Shown here: positions 15,315 through 29,073 of the stretch, in pieces
How positions within the stretch are numbered: the stretch's first letter is position 1
Layout: every line of letters begins with the position of its first letter
From: an uncultured archaeon
Lineage (GTDB): Archaea; Asgardarchaeota; Thorarchaeia; Thorarchaeales; Thorarchaeaceae
Direction: 5' to 3'
Length of the DNA: 32,000 nucleotides
NCBI GenBank assembly: GCA_964648855.1
Contig: CAZYLT010000010.1
Location: 1-32,000, forward strand
Notes under the pieces: generated by a model
The model's input: the letters and a program-made list of their open reading frames with translations, nothing else
Database searches by the model: none
Told to the model about the DNA's origin: nothing
Translations under genes and position numbers: made by a program

Positions 15315-17342
15315 TTACTCTTCTTGTTCATCCATGCGCGTATAGAGATTGTATTTCATGAAGCTGTAAATGCCTGCTAGCATAATGATGCTAAGCAATC
15401 CCACGGGCGCCACCACCGAAATCCAGTGTTCTTGTGGATCCCAATCGATTCCATCAGGAATCCCATCACCATCTGTGTCGGGATTAGTCGGAGATAGGCA
15501 GTATTCAACCTCATAGGCATCAGACCATCCGTCTCCATCTGTGTCTCTGGAGGTCGGGTCCAACTGATTGAGTACCTCAAAGAGGTCGCTGAGAGAGTCA
15601 CCATCCGAATCTGGAGATAAGGGATCAAGGCCGGCTTCTATTTCAAACCCGTCATCTAAGCCATCATAATCTGTGTCCTTTCGCGTTGGATCGGTCAGAT
15701 ATACTTGCCATTCGTCAAAGTCGCTAATCCCATCGCCATCCGTATCTATCTTTATCGGACTAGTTCCAAGTTCCGCTTCTTCTCCATCAGAAATTCCATC
15801 TGAATCAGTGTCGGTAAGTAAGAGGCTTGAGCCCCCTATGTATTCATCGTAGTCTAGTGCCCCGTCGCCATCAGAATCGGCTGCTGTTGGATCTGTTCCC
15901 AAGTCCACTTCAAAACCATCATCTAAGCCATCAAAATCGCTATCCAAGAAGAACGGATTAGTATTGATTAGACACTCATATTGATTTGATAGGGTATCCC
16001 CATCAAAATCTTCCAATTGCGTGAAATTGAGCCAGAATTTTGTCGTGTTGGATCCAATATTTTCTATATCGATTCTATGCGGCCCAAAGTCATTAGAGAG
16101 ATATCTCAATCGGATGAATCCGTCAGATTCTGTTCGCTGATAGACCACAGAATCCGATTCATCCTCGATTATACTTGCTTGCAGCGTTGTATCATTTGTC
16201 CAGCTGATACTGGCATTCACAAAACTGGAGATTGATATCGTGAAGGTATGCGTGGAACTGTTTGTAGGGTAAAGCGTCCCGTGTTCGTATCGATAGCCTG
16301 CAGAACCCTCTTCTATCATCGCAAGATTAGCGAGAACACAGGCTACTATTGCCACCGCTTCCTTCGGTTTCTGGAAGCTGTAGTACTGACGGTCCCAAGT
16401 ATCATCTTCGGAACTAGCGTACGGGTCCGGGAAGAAACCTTGCGTAACATGAATCGCCGGTCTACCAACCTGCCACATCTCATAAGCAAGCGAGCGCTCT
16501 GCAGTGTCGAGGTCGGTCACCTGTTGAATCCAAGAATGCCCAAACTTTGACGAGAGGTCTATCATCAAATCTGGGATCCAGCCATTTTGATGATACAACT
16601 CCTCTTCACTGAAGCTTCTCAAAGAAATAAGATTGCCATAGACGTACTGGGATCGATGGAAAAGCAATCTATCAAATGCGAAGGTGGTATATGTTTCTAC
16701 ATCATTCTCCTCTAACCACTCAACGAATGCCTTGCTTCCCAAATCTACGTCTTCCTCGATGTGTGCACCATTGATTAGTACAAAGTAGAGGTCATAATTC
16801 AGTTCATAATCACTAAGGACTCGTGCCAACTCCAAAACTGCTGCTACACTTATGCCCGCATCATTCGCTCCAGGATTGTTGTCAGAGTCAATCATTCCAG
16901 ATACTACAATTGCTGGTCGCGGAGTAGGCCCCATACCGGTCTTGATTGCAACAAGGGTATCGTATTTTGTCACTGGCTTGAAGCCAAGCTCATTGTCTGT
17001 GTAATTTAGTAAGGTTTCATTAGCCCACTGCCATGCATCAATAAGATTCTGACTGGGCTGTAGAAAATCAGGATTCTGCGATTCCCAAACTCTGCTAGGG
17101 TACTGCTCCGTTAGCTCCTTCGTAAGGTTTCCGAGGCCATATTCAGATGTTTCATCCCACAGGAATTCAAAAGCCTCCGTCATGTTTACCATAGTCTGTT
17201 CAGAGAGCACAACGGTTCCTTCGGGCGATTGTCCGGTCCGGATAGAAACACTTGGTTGCTCGAATCCACTAAGCACTACTAGTTGACCCAGTGCAAGGAA
17301 GAGGGCGAAACCAACTACTACTCGGAGTTTCTTGGATCTCAT
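15315..17342 (-). CDS. Membrane-anchored surface protein: degenerate M28-peptidase domain, beta-sandwich domain, 9 Ca-binding repeats, C-terminal TM (paralog 1)
   Basis: Likely start is ATG 17342 (MRSKKLRVVVGFALF, signal/TM). PGANDAGISVAAVLELARVL, LYFVL..., LGSKAFV and AFDRL are M28-like. DxDxDG repeats and a TM helix follow. Confidence 0.85.
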   Translation of the reverse strand: MRSKKLRVVVGFALFLALGQLVVLSGFEQPSVSIRTGQSPEGTVVLSEQTMVNMTEAFEFLWDETSEYGLGNLTKELTEQYPSRVWESQNPDFLQPSQNLIDAWQWANETLLNYTDNELGFKPVTKYDTLVAIKTGMGPTPRPAIVVSGMIDSDNNPGANDAGISVAAVLELARVLSDYELNYDLYFVLINGAHIEEDVDLGSKAFVEWLEENDVETYTTFAFDRLLFHRSQYVYGNLISLRSFSEEELYHQNGWIPDLMIDLSSKFGHSWIQQVTDLDTAERSLAYEMWQVGRPAIHVTQGFFPDPYASSEDDTWDRQYYSFQKPKEAVAIVACVLANLAMIEEGSAGYRYEHGTLYPTNSSTHTFTISISSFVNASISWTNDTTLQASIIEDESDSVVYQRTESDGFIRLRYLSNDFGPHRIDIENIGSNTTKFWLNFTQLEDFDGDTLSNQYECLINTNPFFLDSDFDGLDDGFEVDLGTDPTAADSDGDGALDYDEYIGGSSLLLTDTDSDGISDGEEAELGTSPIKIDTDGDGISDFDEWQVYLTDPTRKDTDYDGLDDGFEIEAGLDPLSPDSDGDSLSDLFEVLNQLDPTSRDTDGDGWSDAYEVEYCLSPTNPDTDGDGIPDGIDWDPQEHWISVVAPVGLLSIIMLAGIYSFMKYNLYTRMDEQEE
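15435..16010 (-). repeat. Nine ~22-aa DxDxDGxxDxxE Ca-binding (thrombospondin type-3-like) repeats
   Basis: DFDGDTLSNQYE, DSDFDGLDDGFE, DSDGDGALDYDE, DTDSDGISDGEE, DTDGDGISDFDE, DTDYDGLDDGFE, DSDGDSLSDLFE, DTDGDGWSDAYE, DTDGDGIPDGID. Confidence 0.9.
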
Positions 17343-17423
17343 CCTGCCTCTTCGACTATGAGTCCGATTAAATAACTTGCCAAGCCAGCATCTACTTATT
17401 GAGGTTGCTGAAAAAATCACAAG

Positions 17424-19424
17424 TCATCCTCTCCGTAGATACTCTTGGCGCTTCTTCAGCAGAAAAATCATTATTGCTATCGTGAAAATTCCGAGACCTA
17501 TGATGGGCAAAGCAGTTATCCAGTGCTCTCTGGGCGCCCAGTCAGCCCCATCGGGAATGCCGTCCCCATCCGTATCGGGGTCGAATGGTTTCAGACAGTG
17601 TTCTACTTCATATGCATCAGTTAGGCCGTCAGAGTCAGTATCTGCAGATAAGGGATTGAGTCCATTCAATACCTCGAATAGATCGTTGAGTCCGTCGCCA
17701 TCAGAATCTGGGTTGGCAGGGTCGGTACCGGCCTCAAGCTCAAGCGGGTCAATAAGACCATCTGAATCCGTGTCATTGGACAAAGGATTCCATCCGTTTT
17801 CGAGCTCAACGTTATCTGGAATAGTATCGCTATCCGTGTCATTGCTTGTGGGATCCATCCCTAGGTCGATTTCTTCACCATCAAGAATGCCATCAGAGTC
17901 TGTATCCTGAACAAGCGGATCTGAACCAATGATATACTCTATTCCATCCATTGCCCCATCCGAGTCGGAGTCTTGATTTCGCGGGTTTGTACCCAGCTCT
18001 CGCTCTAGGTCATCCCGAAGATAGTCATTATCAGAGTCCTCTGAGAGCGAGTTTGTTCCAAAGATGAATTCCTCATGGTCGTCTAGGTTGTCCTTATCAT
18101 AATCATGCCAATGAGAGATGTTGTATTGGAATATTGCCGACTCATTGCCTAGATTCTCTACAGTTATATTATGCACACCCTTGTTTGTGGGCATGTATTC
18201 TATTTCAATATCCCAGTCAGATTCGTTTACAGAATAGGCCAAAGTGCCAAAGGGGTCAATGATATCAACTTTTAGCGTGGTATTTGCCACCCATATGATG
18301 GTGGCGTTAAGAGATGACATGCTTGATACAGGGACATTGTATCTTCTAGTAGCATCAACTGCAATACTGTTTGACCCGGAGAACAAAGGCTTCTTGCCAT
18401 TCCCCATGTATCCTAGAAATGCCGCCAAACAGGCAGCAATTCCCGCTGCTTCTTTTGCTTGCGAGTAATCATATACAGTGATATCCCACTGATCATTTGG
18501 TCCTCCTCCCAACCCGGCTGCGCTATACTGGGAAAATGAGAATCCAGGTATTCCCCACACCCAAGCCTCCTCTGCTCCTGTTCCTGACCACAAGGCTGTC
18601 TCTGGGTCATGATTGCCATAGACTTTTCCCTGTCCAACTCTCGATGAGCCCTGCTCCGCCAATTGTACAACGAGTTCTTCGGAACTGAATCCACTCTCAA
18701 GTGTATTGTAGTGAAGTGGAACCATATCGCCGAGTGTTTCCCCGCTATCCCTGTAGAGAAGGCGATCGAACCAGAACAGTGCAGATGGCTTGGTCCCAGT
18801 TTCATTGAGGTGCTCCAACAGGCTCTGTATTCCTAGATTTCCGGATACAGAGCCACCATATGTAGAAGCATAAGCGTTTACAAGCACGTAGTAAATGTCG
18901 TTGGTGAAGTTGTAGCTATGGAGTACACGGGAAATCTCAAGTACTACGCCTACTGCCGCCCCCCACATATTCGCACCTGGAGAATATCTGCCTGCAATGT
19001 TTGTTGCGAAAACAATTGGTGCTGAATTTTGGTCAGTTCCGTGTTGTATGGCAACGAGACTCTTCTCTTCCGTCACAAAGCCAAATTTCAGTTCATTACC
19101 CGTATACGATTTCAGTGTTGAATTGGCGTAATTCCATGCCCCAATGAGTGGGTCAGACCCTTCTTTATGTAAGGGAAACCAGACACGATTCTTATAGTCT
19201 TCAGATAGCACCTTGGTGATTGATTGGATATTCGCTTGGCTGATGGAGGAATATATTGCGCTCCAAGTATCGTAAACTTCAAGCACTTCATTCTGAGCCA
19301 GTACATGATCAAGAGAATGCAATTTTTCAGCTTTTATTCCCGTCGTAGTCGGACCATCGAGAAACGATAGGGATGAAGCTATCATTACAAAAACAACAAA
19401 AAAGGCAAGCGTTCTCCTTCTCAT
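17424..19424 (-). CDS. Membrane-anchored surface protein: highly degenerate M28-like domain, 9 Ca-binding repeats, C-terminal TM (paralog 2)
   Basis: Likely start is ATG 19424 (MRRRTLAFFVVF). PGANMWGAAVGVVLEISRVL and FDRLLY align with paralog 1. Same repeat block and EHWI-TM-basic tail. Confidence 0.85.
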   Translation of the reverse strand: MRRRTLAFFVVFVMIASSLSFLDGPTTTGIKAEKLHSLDHVLAQNEVLEVYDTWSAIYSSISQANIQSITKVLSEDYKNRVWFPLHKEGSDPLIGAWNYANSTLKSYTGNELKFGFVTEEKSLVAIQHGTDQNSAPIVFATNIAGRYSPGANMWGAAVGVVLEISRVLHSYNFTNDIYYVLVNAYASTYGGSVSGNLGIQSLLEHLNETGTKPSALFWFDRLLYRDSGETLGDMVPLHYNTLESGFSSEELVVQLAEQGSSRVGQGKVYGNHDPETALWSGTGAEEAWVWGIPGFSFSQYSAAGLGGGPNDQWDITVYDYSQAKEAAGIAACLAAFLGYMGNGKKPLFSGSNSIAVDATRRYNVPVSSMSSLNATIIWVANTTLKVDIIDPFGTLAYSVNESDWDIEIEYMPTNKGVHNITVENLGNESAIFQYNISHWHDYDKDNLDDHEEFIFGTNSLSEDSDNDYLRDDLERELGTNPRNQDSDSDGAMDGIEYIIGSDPLVQDTDSDGILDGEEIDLGMDPTSNDTDSDTIPDNVELENGWNPLSNDTDSDGLIDPLELEAGTDPANPDSDGDGLNDLFEVLNGLNPLSADTDSDGLTDAYEVEHCLKPFDPDTDGDGIPDGADWAPREHWITALPIIGLGIFTIAIMIFLLKKRQEYLRRG
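17531..18104 (-). repeat. Nine ~22-aa DxDxDG Ca-binding repeats
   Basis: DYDKDNLDDHEE, DSDNDYLRDDLE, DSDSDGAMDGIE, DTDSDGILDGEE, DTDSDTIPDNVE, DTDSDGLIDPLE, DSDGDGLNDLFE, DTDSDGLTDAYE, DTDGDGIPDGAD. Confidence 0.9.
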
Positions 19425-19535
19425 ACTAACTCTGTCGAAAGGCAAGCTCAGTTATATCTTACGAATCCTGCTGATTTTCATTGCTATTGTAGTAAGCTTA
19501 AAAATCACTTGAGGTCGTCAAGCTGGAGGAGCAAA
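19425..19535. promoter_or_regulatory. Divergent promoter region
   Basis: About 110 bp between divergent starts. TATA-like cttaaaaa at about 19497-19504 (+) and gatataac at 19451-19458 (-). SD-like GGAGG at about 19525 before ATG 19536. Confidence 0.45.
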
Positions 19536-20318
19536 ATGCCCTTGGATAGCAACGTTGCAGTACAGTGTATAGACCTTTATCGGGAATTTGAGGATGGTCG
19601 AAGAATCATCAAAGTACTCAGAGGTACTAATCTTACCGTTAACCGTGGTGAGTTCGTTGCGATAGTGGGAGCAAGTGGTTCGGGCAAGACCACCCTTCTG
19701 AATCTCATAGGTGGACTTGACAGACCCACCGCTGGCGAAATCATTGTTAATGGGGTCGAGATAACCGACCTCAAGGACGAAGAGATGTCACAAATACGTC
19801 GACACAACATAGGTGTCCTGTTTCAAGACCAGCATCTTCTTCCCATCTTTACTGCAATAGAAAATGTACAAGTTCCTATGCTCCTTGATGAAGTACGTGC
19901 CAAAGAGCGGTACGAACGTTCCATAAAACTTCTTGAAGCGGTCGGTGTGGATCACCGTGCTCACCATATGCCACATGAACTCTCCGGCGGAATGAGATCG
20001 CGGGTCGCTCTTGCTCGGGCTCTGGCAAATAACCCGACAGTTTTGCTTTGCGACGAACCGACAGGAGATTTAGACCACAAGACTGGCGGAGAAATTATCA
20101 AATTGATGCGAGATTTGGCTAAAGAAGAGAATCGTGCCGTCATCACAGTCACACATGATCCAGAAACCGCGAGAATGGCCGACAGGATTTTGCTGCTTAG
20201 GGATGGTCAACTAGTTGACGAACTCATTGGCGAGTTCTTTAGAGCAAGTGGTGTAGAGGTCGAGTCTCGCCCCCAAGGCACGCCACCCGATCAGAAGGAT
20301 ACTGCGGTGGAGGGCTGA
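19536..20318 (+). CDS. ABC transporter ATPase, LolD/MacB/FtsE family
   Basis: Walker A GASGSGKT, LDRPTAG, signature LSGGMRSRV, Walker B LLCDEPTGDLD, VTHD. Start ATG 19536 has a GGAGG SD. Confidence 0.95.
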   Translation: MPLDSNVAVQCIDLYREFEDGRRIIKVLRGTNLTVNRGEFVAIVGASGSGKTTLLNLIGGLDRPTAGEIIVNGVEITDLKDEEMSQIRRHNIGVLFQDQHLLPIFTAIENVQVPMLLDEVRAKERYERSIKLLEAVGVDHRAHHMPHELSGGMRSRVALARALANNPTVLLCDEPTGDLDHKTGGEIIKLMRDLAKEENRAVITVTHDPETARMADRILLLRDGQLVDELIGEFFRASGVEVESRPQGTPPDQKDTAVEG

Positions 20319-20322
20319 TTCT

Positions 20323-23211
20323 TTGGCTAGTGGAAAAGGGAATTACCGCAAACTAAGAGGTAATCGTGCCTACTCATTCTCATATGCCTTAAGTTCCATG
20401 AGAGCCTTCCCCTTTAGGGCACTGAGTCTTGCATTAACTCTCAGTCTTGGATTTTCTCTTATTGGCTCAGCCATGATTTGGGCTGATACCGGGGTTCAGG
20501 TGAGTATAGAGGAGTACTTCGATGAGAATGGTTTCCAATTGCTTGTCACAAACCCTGCTGGGCGAACTGAGTCCGTTGACGCCGCATCATTGTATGCCTT
20601 GAGCAGCGATTTCGTTGATAGCGCAACAAGAGTAAACTCGACGGTTGGGCTAGTCTATGGTACTGCGCTTCCGGATGATACGCCGTACGGGCTGGATTTG
20701 CCCATCTATAGTAGTGGAATCAAGGATTGTGAGGTTATCTTTGTGGATAACCAATTTCTTGAACAATCCAAGGGCCAATTCGAAATTGAAGGACGCTTTT
20801 CATTAAGCGATGACGAAGCTCTGGTTTCAACACAGTTCGTTAACTATGTATACAAAATCTATGGTCAGACACTGACACTGAACTCAACAATTAGTGTGGA
20901 GCTGTTGACTCGGCGGGCAATAGGTACTGAAGGTGCTATTGGCGATATGGGTAGAACAAGCCTTGATTCATTGACCATAGTTGGAATATACGAAATTGAG
21001 GGATACACCTCAATAATCGAAACCGCTTTTCCATCGCAGTTACGTAGCAACTATGACTATGTCAATTATGACGCTCCAGTGCTCGGCATTCGAGACAGCA
21101 TTATGGTACTTTCAAGTGCTGTGGATACGGGTGACCTCCCCGAGGTTGGCTTTTTTGGAGCAAAGACTTTCATTAGAGCATCAAGTGGCGCCCTTGTTGC
21201 TGCAGGGCTTGAAGATATTTCAAAGAATCTCATAACACTCAAGACCCGAATAGAGGAACAATTCTCTGTTCTCGTTGAAGGATTAGATGAGGTCCTATAC
21301 CTCCAGAACCTTGTTGATACTTATATCCAAACCATGCCCCTAGCTCTGCTCAATCTACCGATATTCATTCTCGCGTTGTTTCTCTCGGTGTTTGCTGCAG
21401 ACACCTTTATGGCAACACGAAAGACAGAGGTCAGCGCTCTGAGGTCAAAAGGTGCCAGTTCCCGTCAGATATATGGAATTTTCTTCGCTGAGTCAATCTT
21501 AATCGCGTCATTCAGTATAGCTATCGGTCTCTTCCTGAGTATGCTGTTTGCCGCCCTAATCCCCGCTGCAACAAGTTTCATGAGTTTTGATTGGGAAGTA
21601 TACTCGTATTATCTGTCAGAAACTGTTCTCAATCCCCAAAGTGTCTTGATTACTATTCTCGTATGCATTCTTCCTCCATTGCTGTTTATCCTTAACTCTG
21701 CTAGAAATGCAGCTCTCACAGAGATAGGAAGCCAGCTTATGGAAACCGCAGATACAGAACCATCTGAGCAACCTGCTTATGGCTTTACTATAGGAGCTTC
21801 CACAGTGCTGCTCGGGCTGGTCATGGCTGCGGTGTTATTCGTCCCAGGAAATCCCATTCTGCTCCTAGTTGAAATTGGCCTGGGTACTGCAGCGTGGTTC
21901 TTTCTGTCCTACAATGGATCGAGGATTACCCGTGTTGGATTTGCCAAATTCACTTCCCGACTTTCCTTTCTCCTCGGCGAGAAGAATATGATTTCGTCTG
22001 GAAATCTGAGGATGAGAAAAGGACGTGTTGTACCACTTATGGTGGTTCTTTCCTTAACCCTCTCATCGACAATAGCTTTTACCGTCCAAGCCGAGAGCTT
22101 CCAAGCCGACTTACAGAAAGAAGTGTCCTATGCGCTTGGTGCTGATTTACGAGTAGGAACGACCTCTAGACCGTTTTCGTTTAGGGAAACATTGGAGGAA
22201 TATCCTGGGGTTAATCGAGCAACCCCCATCCTTAGAACTTGGGCACAACTTGGAACCGAACGGATGACACTTGAAGCAGTAGATGCCATTGAATACTCCC
22301 TGATTGGGAAATTCGACCCATCGAGTTTCTATGGAGAAGATTCGAGCTTTCTCCTGTCCCGACTCTCATCAACTCCAAATGGCATCGTGCTGAGCAACTA
22401 TCACGCAAGTAGATGGAATAAGTCAATCGGCGATAGTCTCAACCTTCGTATCGGTGGAAGACTCCAAGCAGTCTATGTCAGCTTCCAAGTAGTCGGTCTG
22501 GTGCAGAGTGCGCCCGGTTTTGGATATGCATCAGCAGAAGATATTCCACAATCACGGTTGGGGCCGGCATTTGGCTTCCAAGCCCGATACTCTGGATTTG
22601 CCATTGCCAATATTGACTATATATCTCAAAGAACTGACATATCTACTGCAGATTTATTCCTCGCTGACCTAGTTTGTGTTACCGACCAGGACTTAGTTCT
22701 TCGTGCATTAACTGACCTGCCCGGGGTGTCCGCAACTACACCAGAATCGTTCGAACTCGACCGGTTTTCCTTTGGAACAGCATTATTCCTTAGCACAGTA
22801 GAAGGACTATTCTCAATTGGATTTGCTATGTCATTGATTCTAAGCATGTTTGCTCTTACATTGTTCCTCGGCTCAGTTGTTCGAGAAAGAAAACGAGATT
22901 ATGCCATTCTTAGAGCGGTGGGTGGTTCAAAGAGCCAAATAATTCGTGTGGTCATGTCCGAGTTTGCTGGGATTGTCTTTGCATCTCTAACTCTTAGTTT
23001 GGTCTTGGGAACCATATTTGGATATGTCATGAGTGCCGTGGTCTTTTCGATGAGCCCTTTTGCTAGAGTTCTCCAAGCAGTCATATCATTTCCGATTGGC
23101 TTTCTTACCGCCGTCTTGCTAGTGGAAATTGGAGCCATGATTGCAGGTGCTTACTGGCCAGCAGTAGAGGCGTCTAAGACAGATCCTGCGATAGTATTAC
23201 GAAATCTATGA
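20323..23211 (+). CDS. Large FtsX/MacB-type ABC permease with internal duplication (paralog 1)
   Basis: Two FtsX-type motifs (RKTEVSALRSKGAS..QI and ERKRDYAILRAVGGS..QI), GADLRV, two large extracytoplasmic domains, C-terminal DPAIVLRNL. Confidence 0.92.
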   Translation: MASGKGNYRKLRGNRAYSFSYALSSMRAFPFRALSLALTLSLGFSLIGSAMIWADTGVQVSIEEYFDENGFQLLVTNPAGRTESVDAASLYALSSDFVDSATRVNSTVGLVYGTALPDDTPYGLDLPIYSSGIKDCEVIFVDNQFLEQSKGQFEIEGRFSLSDDEALVSTQFVNYVYKIYGQTLTLNSTISVELLTRRAIGTEGAIGDMGRTSLDSLTIVGIYEIEGYTSIIETAFPSQLRSNYDYVNYDAPVLGIRDSIMVLSSAVDTGDLPEVGFFGAKTFIRASSGALVAAGLEDISKNLITLKTRIEEQFSVLVEGLDEVLYLQNLVDTYIQTMPLALLNLPIFILALFLSVFAADTFMATRKTEVSALRSKGASSRQIYGIFFAESILIASFSIAIGLFLSMLFAALIPAATSFMSFDWEVYSYYLSETVLNPQSVLITILVCILPPLLFILNSARNAALTEIGSQLMETADTEPSEQPAYGFTIGASTVLLGLVMAAVLFVPGNPILLLVEIGLGTAAWFFLSYNGSRITRVGFAKFTSRLSFLLGEKNMISSGNLRMRKGRVVPLMVVLSLTLSSTIAFTVQAESFQADLQKEVSYALGADLRVGTTSRPFSFRETLEEYPGVNRATPILRTWAQLGTERMTLEAVDAIEYSLIGKFDPSSFYGEDSSFLLSRLSSTPNGIVLSNYHASRWNKSIGDSLNLRIGGRLQAVYVSFQVVGLVQSAPGFGYASAEDIPQSRLGPAFGFQARYSGFAIANIDYISQRTDISTADLFLADLVCVTDQDLVLRALTDLPGVSATTPESFELDRFSFGTALFLSTVEGLFSIGFAMSLILSMFALTLFLGSVVRERKRDYAILRAVGGSKSQIIRVVMSEFAGIVFASLTLSLVLGTIFGYVMSAVVFSMSPFARVLQAVISFPIGFLTAVLLVEIGAMIAGAYWPAVEASKTDPAIVLRNL

Positions 23212-23220
23212 GGCAAAACT

Positions 23221-26139
23221 ATGGCGAAACTATCAAACCCCCGACAACGGATGAAGGGCAGCTCAACATGGTCGTTATCATATGCCCTTTCTTCTCTAAC
23301 AAAATATCCGAGCAGAAACATGGGCATTGCATTAGTCCTCGCCATCGGGATTGCTTTACCTACCACTGTATTTGTTTGGTCTAATACGGGCACCACCTTA
23401 GTCGTATCTGATTACTTTGAAGAACGCACGTATCAAATGTCGCTGCGTTTAAAGCCAAATGCACTTTACGACCGAAGACTGCTTGATGATATAATAGAAA
23501 CAGCAGAAGATCATCCTCTTACAGACACCGTCCACCGTATCGTTTCTACAGCAGGCGTCTTGGCAAACGATACTTTTCCAGACTGGGAGTACTATGATGC
23601 CTATGGCAGCTATCAATACAACTATGTGGAGGGAGTGAAAGATGGTCGCGTGGTCCTGACCACTAATGAGATACTCGGGAATTGGTCGCGGGAATTCGAC
23701 TACACAGGCAAGTTCACCTTAAATCCTGGAGAGTTGCTTGTGTCTGAGGGGTTCATATCCTATACACAAGATGTACTGGATATTGAACTTGAGATTGGAG
23801 ATGAGGTGGACATCGACATTATTGCTCATGAGCAGAGAGCTGGGCAATTGCGTTCTCGTGAAGAATTATCCGTTGAACCCGCTCACAATCTGACAATCGT
23901 AGGAATTTACAGTATAAAAAATCTCAACTCACAGATTGGGAATGCTTTCGTTTCCATCATGCGCAAGAATTGGGACCCTCTTGGTTTTGCTGAATCAGTC
24001 CTTGGGATCGAGGACTCGGTGATTATGCTCTCGAGTGAAATAGGTGAAGAAAAGACAGAAGAGATTGCCAATTGGGGGTATTTCAAATCCGCTATCCTTG
24101 TTCGCGCATCTGAGAGCGAACTGATTGCTAGAGGCTCCCAGAATTTCGCTGACAATCTCATAACCTTCAAGTCACAATTTGAGGAAGAGTTTCCTACGTA
24201 CCAGGTTAGCGGCCTGCTTGATATCTGGGAACTTGATTCGCAGATACAAACCTATCTTGATAGTCAAATTCTAACAATTGTGGCATTCCCTGTATTGATC
24301 ATGAGCCTGATGTTGACGGTATTCACATCAGAAGCAGCCGTATCCCGCCGGAAAGGAGAAATCAGTGCTCTCAGGGCTAAGGGTGCATCTTACAACCAAA
24401 TATTTTCAACATTCATGTGGGAATCTCTATTCCTTGCTCTAGCTGGTCTTTTGATTGGCCTTGGTCTATCGCTAGTGATGGGCCCATTGATTGGCTCCTC
24501 GACGGGGCTATTTGTGTTTAATATGGGGGTGTTCTTGGATTATATCACGCATCTTACCATGCCCAGCCTTGGATTGATAATTGCAGCAGTCATTGCTTTG
24601 TATCTGCCAGCGACTTATTTGCTCCATGTTGCTAGGCGAATTGATGTATCTGAAGTAGGACAGCCAATGGATAATCAACCCGATGAGGTTGCTGACACCG
24701 GGAATGGATGGCGATATGGCATTGGGCTTGGGCTCACTCTTTCTGCGCTACTATTGATGCCAACATTAGCATCCCCTCGGGGCATGGTGGCAATTCTTGA
24801 AACTCTAATAGCAACCTTGCTGCTGTTTGTCGCTTCATATTTTGGTTCTCGTGCGATGCGTCATTTTACTGCCCGTGTGTCTGGGGGCACGAATTTCTTA
24901 TTGGGCGAAAAGAGCCTATATCTGAGCCAAAGCCTAAGGAAACGTAAGGGTCAATTCATCCCCCTCCTAGTTATCCTTACTCTCACTCTCACCACGACAA
25001 CAATGATGCTTGTACAGACATCAAGTTTCCAAGCAACTGTAGACAACGAGTTAGCCTACGCCATCGGTGCTGACATGCGCGTTGAATGTGACCCAAAGCC
25101 ATTCGACTTCAATAAAACTCTGAAGTCATATCCAGGCGTCATAGATGCGACTCCTGTCATACAAACATGGGGTCAAGTTTCCACTAGCAGGTTCTTTTTG
25201 GAAGGCATTGACCCACTCAGATATCTAGACATAGGACGTTTCTCAGCGGGTAGTTTCGTTGGCAACTCTTCTGAATCTATTCTAACGGAACTGGACCAAA
25301 CCAACAACGGGATTGTAATCAGTGAATATTATGCAGACTTGTGGAATAAAACAACGGGCGATGGGGTTTTGGTCTACTATGGAGGCATTGAAGATACGCT
25401 ATTATCTTCCTTCAAAATCGTTGGAATCATGAAGAGTGCTCCGGCTTTTGGGATTGCTTCAACAGATGAAATCAACGGCCCCTCCTTTGCTGCACAATTT
25501 GGATTCCAAGCAGGACAGGGCGGGTTTGCCCTCGTGAACCTTGACTTTCTCTCGGAGCGAAGTGGCATAGATAGAGCGGAGCTGTTCTTGGTGGATACAA
25601 TATGCTTTGCGGATGTAACTCCTATCATTGAGTCTCTCTCTGAGGAAAAGAATACCCATGTCTTTACCGTTGAAACATTTGATATCTCTACACAATCATA
25701 CTCGCTACAGTTATTCTTGTCAGGCATTCAAGGGCTGACTGTAATCTCATTTGCTTTATGTGCCGCCATGGGACTTTCAGCGATAGCTCTGTTCCTTGGA
25801 TCCTCGGTTAGTGAACGGAGCCAAGAATACGCCTTGTTTAGAGCAATAGGGAGCACTGAGAAGCAGGTAGTCAGCATGGTATTCGGAGAATTTGCTGGTT
25901 CTGTTGTCGCTGCTATCTCTATCAGTGTGTTTCTTGGGTTCTTCTTTGGATACGCTATGAGCCTACTAACGTTTGGTGTTTCTCCCTTCTCACCTGTATT
26001 GGCAGAGGTTCTATCATTTCCAATTGCTATGCTGATAGTCATTATATCTTTGGAGAGCTTGGTTATGCTTGCCAGCTGCTATATTCCTGCCAAACGGGCA
26101 GGACGAGTAGACCCCGCGGAGGCCCTAAGGAATCTGTGA
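23221..26139 (+). CDS. Large FtsX/MacB-type ABC permease with internal duplication (paralog 2)
   Basis: RRKGEISALRAKGAS, ERSQEYALFRAIGS, GADMRV, C-terminal DPAEALRNL. Colinear with paralog 1. Confidence 0.92.
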   Translation: MAKLSNPRQRMKGSSTWSLSYALSSLTKYPSRNMGIALVLAIGIALPTTVFVWSNTGTTLVVSDYFEERTYQMSLRLKPNALYDRRLLDDIIETAEDHPLTDTVHRIVSTAGVLANDTFPDWEYYDAYGSYQYNYVEGVKDGRVVLTTNEILGNWSREFDYTGKFTLNPGELLVSEGFISYTQDVLDIELEIGDEVDIDIIAHEQRAGQLRSREELSVEPAHNLTIVGIYSIKNLNSQIGNAFVSIMRKNWDPLGFAESVLGIEDSVIMLSSEIGEEKTEEIANWGYFKSAILVRASESELIARGSQNFADNLITFKSQFEEEFPTYQVSGLLDIWELDSQIQTYLDSQILTIVAFPVLIMSLMLTVFTSEAAVSRRKGEISALRAKGASYNQIFSTFMWESLFLALAGLLIGLGLSLVMGPLIGSSTGLFVFNMGVFLDYITHLTMPSLGLIIAAVIALYLPATYLLHVARRIDVSEVGQPMDNQPDEVADTGNGWRYGIGLGLTLSALLLMPTLASPRGMVAILETLIATLLLFVASYFGSRAMRHFTARVSGGTNFLLGEKSLYLSQSLRKRKGQFIPLLVILTLTLTTTTMMLVQTSSFQATVDNELAYAIGADMRVECDPKPFDFNKTLKSYPGVIDATPVIQTWGQVSTSRFFLEGIDPLRYLDIGRFSAGSFVGNSSESILTELDQTNNGIVISEYYADLWNKTTGDGVLVYYGGIEDTLLSSFKIVGIMKSAPAFGIASTDEINGPSFAAQFGFQAGQGGFALVNLDFLSERSGIDRAELFLVDTICFADVTPIIESLSEEKNTHVFTVETFDISTQSYSLQLFLSGIQGLTVISFALCAAMGLSAIALFLGSSVSERSQEYALFRAIGSTEKQVVSMVFGEFAGSVVAAISISVFLGFFFGYAMSLLTFGVSPFSPVLAEVLSFPIAMLIVIISLESLVMLASCYIPAKRAGRVDPAEALRNL

Positions 26140-26236
26140 TTAACATGCCACGACTGAACCAAGAAATAACAGTGTGCAGAATGCATAGCTCAATAACCTT
26201 ATCTGAAAGCCCAGAAGGCTGTGGAATGATGCTCAC

Positions 26237-27250
26237 ATGACAACTGCAGAAGAAATCGACATTTACAGTGACTACCCTGATGATGTAGTTGTCAGTGCGG
26301 AGAATGTCTACAAGATTTACAAAACAAACGAACTAGAAACTGTTGCACTGAGTGGTGTTTCTCTTCAAATTCTTGAAGGAAAGATAATGTGTGTGGTCGG
26401 ACCAAGTGGATCAGGGAAGACCACGTTGACAAATATCATCGGAGGCATTACAAAAGCCACAGTCGGAAAAGTATACTGGGCTAATCTCCGTAAGGACATC
26501 ACCAAGATTTCGGAACGTGTACTTACTGAAGCACGACGTTCTTTCATTGGTTTTGTTTTCCAGGTTAACAATCTATTACCTCATCTCAATGCATGGCAAA
26601 ATGTGGAGTTGGCAGCTCGAATAGCTGGCGTTCCGAAGAAGATTAGAAATGATCGAGTTGATAGATTGATCAAACTCGTCGGCCTGGAAGAGAGAAAACG
26701 GAACAAGGCAACCACCCTAAGCGGTGGTGAGCGCTCCAGAGTAGCAATCGCTAGTGCTCTTGTGAACCTTATCGATACAGAAGGAAAGGGCTTAGTTCTA
26801 TGCGACGAGCCAACGGGAGATCTTGATCCTGAAACTGCTCAGAGGATTTTAGAGTTGTTCAAGGAATTGAATGAGACCCTTGGAACTTCATTCTTCATTG
26901 TAACCCATAGCCAACAGGTCGCTTCAATGGCGGATATCACCGTGGAGATACGAGACGGGATTGTTTCAGGATTTCATCGAATGGGTATTGACCTTGACAC
27001 TCTTGGAGCCACGCGGGTCGTTAGACTCGATAACAATTATCGGCTGCCCATGCCAACTGATCTTCTCGAGCTCGCTGGAAACCCGTCACAATTCAGAATA
27101 TCCTTCGAAGATGATAGGTTCATACTCGTGCCATACAAGGAGGACATGAGTGACACGATGCGGGTGAAAAAGGTCATTACCTGCAGGGTCTGCGGAGAAG
27201 AGATTCCACAAGGCAAGTTCATATGCCCCAACTGCGGAAGCACTGTATGA
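26237..27250 (+). CDS. LolD/MacB-family ABC ATPase with C-terminal AbrB-like segment and zinc ribbon
   Basis: GPSGSGKT, LSGGERSRV, VLCDEPTGDLD, VTHS. Tail VRLDNNYRLPMP..L...FRISFEDDRFILVP, then CRVCG...CPNCG. Confidence 0.9.
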   Translation: MTTAEEIDIYSDYPDDVVVSAENVYKIYKTNELETVALSGVSLQILEGKIMCVVGPSGSGKTTLTNIIGGITKATVGKVYWANLRKDITKISERVLTEARRSFIGFVFQVNNLLPHLNAWQNVELAARIAGVPKKIRNDRVDRLIKLVGLEERKRNKATTLSGGERSRVAIASALVNLIDTEGKGLVLCDEPTGDLDPETAQRILELFKELNETLGTSFFIVTHSQQVASMADITVEIRDGIVSGFHRMGIDLDTLGATRVVRLDNNYRLPMPTDLLELAGNPSQFRISFEDDRFILVPYKEDMSDTMRVKKVITCRVCGEEIPQGKFICPNCGSTV

Positions 27251-27267
27251 TTGTGGTGCGGGGATAA

Positions 27268-29073
27268 ATGAACAGAAATCAAGCAGTGATATTGACCCTG
27301 GTCCTACTCGTTTTCCTTGGTTCAGTGACATCCCTTATATTCTGGATTGGAAATCAATATCCTCTACGTCATTCTTCCCCTGCATCTGCTGACTTCTATG
27401 AAACCGATTATTGGGATCTCGGGCCGGCAGAAGATGAGCCACTGGATATCGTCAACATTTCAACCTCGGTTGTCACACATGAAACGAATTCGACACAAGT
27501 TGCACTAGAACGATGGCAATTCACCTATCTAAGTGAAGAGGTCAATTCGATTGAAGTAAGAATCCACTCGACGCTCACTATGCAAGTGAACCAAAGTGGT
27601 GCTCAGCCTGCTATCCTAATCCTTCACGGTTACGGTAGCAGTTCCTCTACATTCATGGGAATAATGAATGATCTCGCTGCAAACGGTATCGTTACTATGG
27701 CTATCGACGCTCCTGACTCTGGAGAATCCACTGCATATCCTCCTCTGAACTCGGACACGTTCTTGGATGTGTCTGAAGGTCCTGAGTCTGCCCATCTTTA
27801 TCATTCTGTATGGTCGGCGGCTCGGGCTGTGACCCTACTTGATTCTCTCCCCTTTGTTTCAGATATGATTATTGCTGGAGGCTCTATGGGCGGGATGCAG
27901 TCTATCATTCTTTCAGCCATAGACGAACGAATCGATGGCACAATACCGATGATTTCAGCCGGCAACCTGGATGAGTCTCTTCGCTCAGGTACCTTCTTGA
28001 ACAGTCTATTTCTTCCCGATAAAGAACTGGATTCAGAGGCAATAAATGACGCTTTAAGATGGTTCGATCCAATTGCCTATGCCCGGAAATTAACAGCCCC
28101 TGTCCTGATGTTTGCGGGCACCAATGACCCCTTCTTTCCTCTATTGTGCATCCACGATACCATTCATGCGATAACCGCCCCGCTGACTTTGAGTTTGTTA
28201 CCTAATGCAGGTCATTTCATTGACCCTACTTGGACCACTGTCATCCTGGAGTGGGTTGATACAGTGTTTAGAAATGGCGGAGAGTATCCATCAATTACTG
28301 TCACTCAACGAGAAGAGCTTACAATATACGGTTGGACCTTACGAATATCTGCTAATGTTACTGCCGATTTGCCTTTGAGAGTATGGTGGAGGACTGGTGA
28401 TCCTGGCTCGCCATGGCAAATGTCTGAGATGGAACTAACTCCTCATGGCTTCGTTTTTGATTTGACTCCAACTCATATAGGCAGAATCTCTTTCTTTGTG
28501 AGTGGAATGCGTGATGGCATTATCTATGCATCATCCGAGATTCATATTGCTCGGGGCGGGAGTTTTATAGTTCCGCTCATTAGTCTGCTTTCCGGGGTAG
28601 GGCTAATTGCAATGAGTAAGACTACGGGGTGGCATCCGACCCTTGCGAAAACAATCAGAGAACTCCCTATCATTGTCGGTATCGTCATGATGGTATCCGG
28701 TTTTCTACTTCCTTACTTTGGAATCAGTGGGCGAGTTGAAATTTCCCTTTTGGATTTCATGGAGATCTTCGGGAATTATCTTGGTTTGAGCGGATGGTTC
28801 CTCTCTCTCATCATAGTTCTGTTCTCTCTGATCATTTCATTGTCATCTACTCGCCATGGAATACCCCTGCAATTGACGGTTATTGTATGGATTCCTATTT
28901 TGGTTGCCCTATCAATTGCATACTTTTTCTTCGCTGGCGTATTTGCAGTTTCTGGAGTGCTATTCACTGTCTATGCAGGACCTGGAACATTTCTCCTACT
29001 TCTTGCAGTTCCAGTAATGCTGATTCTTGAGTCCTTGTTCAGAAAGCATTCGCAGTTTCTCAGTAGTCACTAG
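27268..29073 (+). CDS. Membrane-anchored extracellular alpha/beta hydrolase (acetyl-esterase/S9-like) with a multi-pass C-terminus
   Basis: N-terminal TM, LHGYG, nucleophile GGSMGG, acid GTNDPFF, base NAGH, and about 5 hydrophobic helices at the C-terminus. Confidence 0.85.
   Translation: MNRNQAVILTLVLLVFLGSVTSLIFWIGNQYPLRHSSPASADFYETDYWDLGPAEDEPLDIVNISTSVVTHETNSTQVALERWQFTYLSEEVNSIEVRIHSTLTMQVNQSGAQPAILILHGYGSSSSTFMGIMNDLAANGIVTMAIDAPDSGESTAYPPLNSDTFLDVSEGPESAHLYHSVWSAARAVTLLDSLPFVSDMIIAGGSMGGMQSIILSAIDERIDGTIPMISAGNLDESLRSGTFLNSLFLPDKELDSEAINDALRWFDPIAYARKLTAPVLMFAGTNDPFFPLLCIHDTIHAITAPLTLSLLPNAGHFIDPTWTTVILEWVDTVFRNGGEYPSITVTQREELTIYGWTLRISANVTADLPLRVWWRTGDPGSPWQMSEMELTPHGFVFDLTPTHIGRISFFVSGMRDGIIYASSEIHIARGGSFIVPLISLLSGVGLIAMSKTTGWHPTLAKTIRELPIIVGIVMMVSGFLLPYFGISGRVEISLLDFMEIFGNYLGLSGWFLSLIIVLFSLIISLSSTRHGIPLQLTVIVWIPILVALSIAYFFFAGVFAVSGVLFTVYAGPGTFLLLLAVPVMLILESLFRKHSQFLSSH

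Follow-up and report, generated by a model that had tools for sequence, protein, structure and literature searches.

The first 32,000 nucleotides of contig CAZYLT010000010.1 (GenBank assembly GCA_964648855.1), from an uncultured archaeon of the Thorarchaeaceae (Asgardarchaeota), were analyzed in this work and are called the window below. From position 15,315 to position 29,073 the window carries seven genes. Two of them encode surface-anchored proteins with an M28 peptidase-like head (M28A and M28B); on the opposite strand follow the four genes of an ATP-binding cassette (ABC) transporter cassette (ATP1, PERM1, PERM2 and ATP2) and a gene for a membrane esterase (HYD). An earlier note on this DNA had proposed that all seven genes form one cell-surface system, in which the M28-like proteins are partners of a doubled ABC machine and HYD is its effector. 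Our comparative analyses rather point to a modular locus whose conserved unit is the four-gene ABC cassette, a reading that we hold with a probability of about 0.6.

Coordinates, gaps and starts of the open reading frames (ORFs) were taken from the window sequence (Table 1). Domains were assigned with Pfam, and AF2 structure models were compared with Foldseek.

Table 1. Features of the locus, with positions counted along the window.
Feature	Position	Strand	Description
M28A	15315-17420	-	Surface-anchored pseudo-M28 protein; likely start ATG 17342; Pfam Peptidase_M28 and TSP3_bac
M28B	17424-19445	-	M28A paralog of the same architecture, metal ligands all lost; likely start ATG 19424; Pfam TSP3_bac
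Divergent spacer M28B/ATP1	19425-19535		111 bp, using the likely starts
ATP1	19509-20318	+	MacB/LolD-type ABC ATPase; likely start ATG 19536, with GGAGG at 19525 ahead of it
PERM1	20323-23211	+	YbbP-like type VII ABC permease with 10 transmembrane helices; two FtsX modules, two large ectodomains
PERM2	23221-26139	+	PERM1 paralog of the same architecture; Pfam FtsX, two copies
Promoter-like element, core AATAACCTTATC	26183-26206	+	About 35 nucleotides upstream of ATP2; from spacer alignment; putative promoter
ATP2	26237-27250	+	ABC ATPase whose C-terminal extension ends in a Cys4 zinc ribbon; Pfam ABC_tran and Zn_Ribbon_1
HYD	27268-29073	+	Membrane esterase; Pfam alpha/beta-hydrolase families

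Predicted products of the seven genes

All seven ORFs lie where the earlier note had placed them, and the gaps of the rightward arm are exactly 4, 9, 97 and 17 bp. The divergent spacer, put at about 110 bp before, measured 111 bp between the likely ATG codons of M28B and ATP1. Full-length orthologs of all seven genes are present in related genomes, from which it follows that the genes are real. The three paralog pairs were recovered as well: M28A and M28B share 38% identity (E 4e-123), PERM1 and PERM2 36% over their full length (E 0), and ATP1 and ATP2 36% (E 2e-44).

The assignment of the ABC arm to type VII, the MacB/FtsX class, was upheld by two FtsX domains per permease, MacB/LolD-type ATPases and a YbbP-like predicted fold. 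Pfam found two PF02687 FtsX modules in each of PERM1 and PERM2. The AF2 model of PERM1 (pLDDT 84, pTM 0.75) featured ten transmembrane (TM) helices in a 4+2+4 arrangement, with ectodomains between TM1 and TM2 and between TM7 and TM8. The top Foldseek matches of this model were to E. coli YbbP (9ge6_A, E 1.4e-21; 9ge7_A, E 8.7e-20) and extended over the full length, with about 980–1010 aligned columns. YbbP was followed by BceB, LolE/LolC, MacB and HrtB, and the ectodomains of LolE, LolC and MacB likewise matched the PERM1 model. Searched by sequence against the PDB, PERM1 gave weak matches to LolF and no phmmer match to YbbP, with which it shares 12–13% identity. The kinship of PERM1 and YbbP is visible at the level of the predicted fold only.

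YbbP has ten TM helices, with ectodomains at TM1-2 and TM7-8, and binds two YbbA ATPases (2:1 ATPase:permease) together with one TesA esterase (PMC12646458). Because YbbP shares the 10-TM topology and binds two YbbA subunits, each window permease probably is a complete membrane domain by itself, and the doubled machine most simply consists of two YbbP-like transporters. Two permeases and two ATPases are indeed encoded, but the 2:2:2 complex suggested earlier is better read as two complete transporters of this type.

The same structural matches bear on another explanation, namely that the cassette is a BceAB-type module for detoxification or sensing of membrane-active peptides or lipids, to which the neighboring genes would be irrelevant. 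BceB was the third-best structural match of PERM1 and has the 10-TM topology in common with it. Moreover, Thorarchaeota genomes contain several such cassettes each, as expected for defense or efflux. However, the match to BceB (E 5e-13) was far weaker than that to YbbP (1e-21), and PERM1 and PERM2 have two large ectodomains, as YbbP does, whereas BceB has one. Among the Pfam-scanned window ORFs there was no BceS/BceR-like kinase or regulator. We consider a BceAB-type role improbable. The same Pfam-scanned ORFs included no TolC, BceRS or EnvC/PcsB-type partner, none of them contained the coiled-coil/LytM adaptor domain of EnvC and PcsB, and HlyD/MacA, LolA and EnvC-like genes were not found among them, in agreement with the absence of adaptors and chaperones noted before.

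In both ATPases the Walker A, Walker B, signature and H-loop motifs are intact (ATP1: Pfam ABC_tran, E 3e-37). A degenerate ATPase site, which would have marked an obligate ATP1–ATP2 heterodimer, was rejected in view of these complete motifs. ATP1 orthologs are 67–93% identical within the family and about 50% identical in two other families, f12 and f2. ATP2 ends in a tail of about 90 residues (window positions 26897-27250, the ATP2 C-terminus) that is kept across families f1, f12, f2 and f22. It consists of a beta-hairpin-like stretch that contains RLPxP, followed by CxxC-x9-11-CxxC. An AbrB-like domain was also considered for this tail and rejected, as Pfam supports the zinc ribbon alone.

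HYD combines an N-terminal anchor, an external alpha/beta-hydrolase domain related to AXE1, PhoPQ-related and dienelactone-hydrolase-like (DLH-like) enzymes, a beta domain and a C-terminal polytopic membrane domain. Its Pfam families are AXE1, PhoPQ_related and Abhydrolase_1. The triad of Ser206 (in GxSMG), Asp287 and His316 was invariant in 12 orthologs, including one that is not linked to the cassette, and so were many residues of the C-terminal polytopic membrane domain. With this intact Ser-Asp-His triad, HYD is predicted to be a competent enzyme, as its earlier designation as a membrane esterase implies. Across genome contigs, a pattern scan for distant HYD relatives found Thorarchaeota only, plus three short matches in Verrucomicrobiales.

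For M28A, the AF2 model (pLDDT 88) showed a signal peptide, an M28 alpha/beta head, a beta-sandwich, a repeat stalk and a C-terminal TM helix. Its top Foldseek matches were the M28 aminopeptidases LapA, AAP and SGAP, and the transferrin receptor was also among the matches. Pfam Peptidase_M28 matched M28A only and TSP3_bac matched both proteins (E 4e-16 and 4e-14). We aligned the ligand positions of 22 M28A and 22 M28B sequences with those of three paralogs from elsewhere in the window genome. Active M28 enzymes have two His, two Asp and one Glu as metal ligands in addition to a catalytic Glu, a set that neither M28A nor M28B retains. All M28A sequences lack both His ligands, and Glu-Glu is not conserved, the Glu-Glu-like pair of the window protein being confined to its genus. 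In the M28B sequences essentially all catalytic and metal residues are lost. Nine DxDxD units were invariant across 34 M28A/M28B orthologs and paralogs; by their DxDxDGxxDxxE-type sequence, the stalks are TSP3 calcium-type repeats. The description of M28A and M28B as paired inactive M28 proteins on calcium-type stalks is thus confirmed by ligands lost across orthologs and by nine TSP3 repeats in each protein.

M28A and M28B of the window lie in one frame, parted by one stop codon plus one codon. In one relative (G022:C305:5369-8575; protein P0008, 1351 residues) M28B and M28A form a single open frame, either a natural fusion or an assembly error.

Other M28/TSP3 paralogs of the window genome, two active-looking and one dead, are encoded on contigs without an FtsX gene. 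Two paralogs on contig C1 (C1:61835-64015 and C1:33311-35242) share the M28 head, beta-sandwich, TSP3 stalk and C-terminal anchor with M28A and M28B at 26–28% identity, but differ in that all seven catalytic and metal residues are intact and no FtsX gene is nearby. The same module of stalk and anchor is found in this genome also under active M28 heads, under beta-propeller-like heads and in giant proteins of 1584 and 2174 residues. It looks like the general mode of surface display in this lineage. Large surface proteins of up to 2174 residues, with long TSP3 runs, a C-terminal TM helix and a basic tail, were seen at C8:26876-31627, C16:1715-8236, C2:20591-23329 and C2:24632-26659. An archaeosortase-type sorting signal was rejected, since the TSP3 proteins of the genome have no common motif, just the TM helix and basic tail. 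A profile of the dead M28 head gave 1525 matches among 1.84 billion representatives. The long matches among the best 150 of these had no FtsX domain; they carried F5/8-C, PKD, Ig-like or MAM domains instead.

Conservation of the locus in Thorarchaeota

The closest public relatives of the window are metagenome-assembled genomes of Candidatus Thorarchaeota, in keeping with an Asgard origin. Sequencing runs listed for it were four DNA runs of a single microbial-mat study, probably its source, and no RNA run. The locus was gathered from 74 distinct Thorarchaeota genomes, and a cassette tree was built from the four ABC proteins of 47 genomes and 3 outgroups. Such a gene-neighborhood survey had been proposed in the earlier note. 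It identified the four ABC genes as a conserved unit from which the M28 pair and HYD are separable, because a sister clade, families f12 and f2 and, as a second copy, the window genome itself all have cassettes without them.

M28 genes were found upstream of ATP1 in 26 genomes. Another 21 had the order OGG-MobB-ATP1-PERM1-PERM2-ATP2-Toprim, with neither M28 genes nor HYD; these 21 genomes contained no M28A or M28B orthologs at all, only distant paralogs on other contigs. Genus g12 has both permeases and M28A only. On the cassette tree, a single change accounted for M28 presence, whereas HYD required four and MobB three. M28B and ATP1 are separated by a MobB-like gene (Pfam MobB) in 20 of the 26 M28-bearing genomes; the window genome has its own MobB on contig C2. 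Since most relatives carry MobB at this place, the direct divergent arrangement of M28B and ATP1 seen in the window is a derived feature of its genus.

The gene directly after ATP2 was HYD in 16 of 71 informative genomes and Toprim in 55. HYD orthologs occurred in 32 of the 81 family genomes. Among 25 informative HYD loci, 13 adjoined ATP2 and 12 lay elsewhere on other contigs, two of the latter in genomes whose cassette has no HYD. The one unlinked locus that was examined closely had genes for an AsnC regulator and MFS transporters next to HYD. A single change separated linked from unlinked genes on the HYD tree. The spacer between PERM2 and ATP2 measured 68–155 bp and contained the AATAACCTTATC motif in M28-bearing genomes; in the other clade it measured 9–26 bp, and the motif was missing. 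This suggests a separate transcription unit for ATP2, or for ATP2 and HYD, as far as spacer sequences can indicate. At one locus (L030, genome G011) an opposite-strand gene of the MBL fold is inserted between PERM2 and ATP2; as this insertion shows, the cassette tolerates a split into two transcription units.

The genes that flank the seven in the window have housekeeping functions: PriL, OGG, an MBL-fold protein, a Toprim protein, ADH, OsmC and Mut7-C. From priL/OGG to Toprim-ADH-OsmC-Mut7-C the block was syntenic in essentially all loci. As the whole flanking block is equally syntenic, adjacency at this locus carries little functional weight. Gene order in this lineage is conserved over long distances, so that adjacency alone is weak functional evidence.

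The cassettes of families f12 and f2 have two permeases and one ATPase each of the ATP1 and ATP2 types, with the genes ordered differently. Beside them stand genes for, among others, a luciferase-like monooxygenase, TldD/PmbA and an ABC-2 system, whereas M28, TSP3 and HYD genes are absent there. The second cassette of the window genome, on contig C18 (C18:41643-49035; L175:11643-19035), has the same ATP-PERM-PERM-ATP order, with permeases of 936 and 940 residues. Its neighbors are genes for a Ras-like GTPase, a phosphoribosyltransferase and an AMP-ligase, and the contig breaks off shortly beyond the second ATPase gene.

In a FastTree phylogeny the two permease copies of each of the families f1, f12 and f2 were mutual closest relatives, the f2 pair being a long-branch join. 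The two ATPase types, unlike the permease copies, are older than the families. Judged from this tree, either the permeases would have been duplicated independently three times or the copies would have been homogenized. Cassettes with three or four permease genes, that is, with an extra PERM1 and/or PERM2, were seen at three loci (L038 in genome G015, L107 and L150).

A probably modular locus and its alternatives

The earlier note compared the seven genes with FtsEX-EnvC, in which a dead peptidase fold regulates hydrolases. By this precedent, the dead M28 proteins would be partners of the permeases or ligand receptors and HYD the regulated effector of one envelope system. The arrangement in the window fits such a proposal: the genes are adjacent and divergent, and all components except HYD are paired. 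In addition, the M28 pair stays beside the cassette in its 26 genomes, and HYD is linked only where M28 genes exist. However, the co-occurrence traces back to one evolutionary event inside a block whose unrelated genes show the same degree of synteny. The flanking housekeeping genes are linked as faithfully as the M28 genes and HYD, each of these linkages arose in a single event, and the divergent arrangement is derived, with MobB intervening in most M28-bearing genomes. The ABC genes stand alone in the 21 genomes of the sister clade, in f12 and f2 and on C18, and about half of the HYD genes are unlinked. M28A occurs by itself in g12 although both permeases are present, and no FtsX fusion was seen on the long matches among the best 150 relatives of the dead head. 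The permease duplications look lineage-specific and are not matched to the M28 duplication. We hence regard one seven-gene machine as very unlikely; attractive as it is, this surface system dissolves once flanking genes and sister clades are taken into account.

A more specific form of the idea would let M28A and M28B form a heterodimer on calcium stalks of equal length that docks on the ectodomains of both permeases, with ATP-driven movement gating the co-transcribed HYD. If true, this would be an archaeal surface machine analogous to both FtsEX-EnvC and YbbAP-TesA at once but made of other components. Given the findings above, we give this arrangement only a slight chance.

Instead, we favor the locus as a set of modules, not one machine. 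Its core would be two complete YbbP/BceB-like type VII ABC transporters. Each 10-helix permease would be a pseudo-dimer, that is, a full membrane domain with two Porter/Sabre-type ectodomains that binds two ATPase subunits. In analogy to YbbAP, MacB and LolCDE, ATP binding and hydrolysis may drive a long-range movement of stalk helices and ectodomains. This movement could pull a hydrophobic or amphipathic molecule out of the membrane at its outer face or expel it from there, or exert a mechanical action outside, presumably with no transport of a solute across the membrane. M28A and M28B most likely are an independent binding or receptor pair, perhaps a heterodimer, and would have been inserted once into the long-lived syntenic block. 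HYD would be an accessory family of membrane-embedded serine esterases, active as predicted from its triad. It was probably placed once directly behind ATP2 in one clade, where it is likely to be co-transcribed, and was later lost several times.

Several observations weigh against such a degree of independence. Wherever HYD is linked, its distance from ATP2 is 17–30 bp, and the linkage is confined to the clade that has M28 genes. The conserved promoter-like element before ATP2 exists only in this same clade of long spacers, M28 genes and HYD. The M28 pair is still found beside the cassette where M28A has diverged down to about 36–43% identity. In f2, too, the gene immediately ahead of the cassette, on the same strand (L086:15021-16535, minus strand), codes for a C-terminally anchored extracellular protein, different from M28A and M28B; this protein has 504 residues, a signal peptide and a weak BNR/sialidase-like match. 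Finally, YbbAP-TesA provides a precedent for an adjacent esterase as the outside partner of a YbbP-type transporter.

This precedent leads to a further explanation, by which the cassette and HYD form a YbbAP-TesA-like complex in HYD-bearing lineages. A lipid or another hydrophobic ester would be taken out of the membrane by the permease ectodomains and handed to HYD for hydrolysis, and the M28 pair would be unrelated. YbbP is the best structural match of PERM1, and YbbAP-TesA is itself a type VII transporter–hydrolase complex from adjacent genes. The HYD triad is intact and faces outward. HYD begins 17 bp after ATP2, probably is co-transcribed with it from the conserved promoter-like element, and has kept its linkage over deep divergence in several genera. 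On the other hand, the linkage has a single origin and disappeared at least three times from cassettes that themselves were kept, and the unlinked half of the HYD orthologs includes the two in genomes whose cassette has none. With a polytopic membrane domain of its own, HYD may reach membrane substrates unaided. Furthermore, HYD is an alpha/beta hydrolase, whereas TesA belongs to the SGNH enzymes. Bathyarchaeota and Thermoproteota have look-alike clusters that resemble HYD in length and Pfam content; as a lead only, these suggest a broader independent family. We regard a transporter–esterase complex in the HYD-bearing lineages as rather unlikely. In the modular locus that we prefer, cooperation of HYD with the transporter is possible in the HYD-linked clade but required by neither partner.

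Comparison with known systems

Much work has been done on the type VII ABC systems of bacteria. In the literature searched, we found no archaeal study of them and no characterized archaeal system with the composition of this locus, and a search on Thorarchaeota with FtsX or ABC transporter returned nothing specific.

M28A and M28B have their closest relatives among ordinary secreted M28 aminopeptidases and Thorarchaeota paralogs. With the transferrin receptor, nicastrin and nicalin, which are non-catalytic M28 folds, they share a fold that is kept while the metal ligands are lost, and display at a membrane surface. The role common to all of them probably is binding rather than catalysis. They differ from these proteins in having no PA or apical domain and in placing the head on a TSP3 stalk with a C-terminal anchor. 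HYD resembles AXE1, PhoPQ-related and dienelactone-hydrolase-like enzymes in its Pfam matches and its GxSxG-Asp-His triad, to which it adds the N-terminal anchor and the conserved C-terminal polytopic membrane domain.

For the transporter, BceAB, MacB, LolCDE and FtsEX-EnvC have the FtsX-type membrane module, stalk helices and ATPase type in common with the cassette, and all were significant structural matches. PERM1 has ten TM helices but a chain of MacB, LolC/E or FtsX four, and BceB has one ectodomain instead of two. The closest known system is YbbAP-TesA, the transporter–lipid hydrolase complex of E. coli (PDB 9GE6-9GE8; PMC12646458), which the earlier note had not named. Shared with it are the pseudo-symmetric 10-TM permease with Porter/Sabre-type ectodomains, a separate MacB-type ATPase and a neighboring esterase gene. 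In contrast, the window locus has two permeases and two distinct ATPases, one of them with a zinc-ribbon tail. TesA is a soluble SGNH enzyme encoded divergently, whereas HYD is a membrane-embedded alpha/beta hydrolase encoded downstream and linked in part of the family only. E. coli is the host of the one system and an archaeon without an outer membrane that of the other, and the likeness is known here from genes and predicted fold.

Asgard archaea of several families keep a four-gene cassette that joins a pair of YbbP-like permeases to ATPases of two different types, only one of which has the conserved zinc-ribbon tail. The cassette is a new archaeal form of a known type of transporter. The membrane esterase that shares a predicted transcription unit with it in one clade is a concrete lead, as it echoes the recently solved YbbAP-TesA complex.

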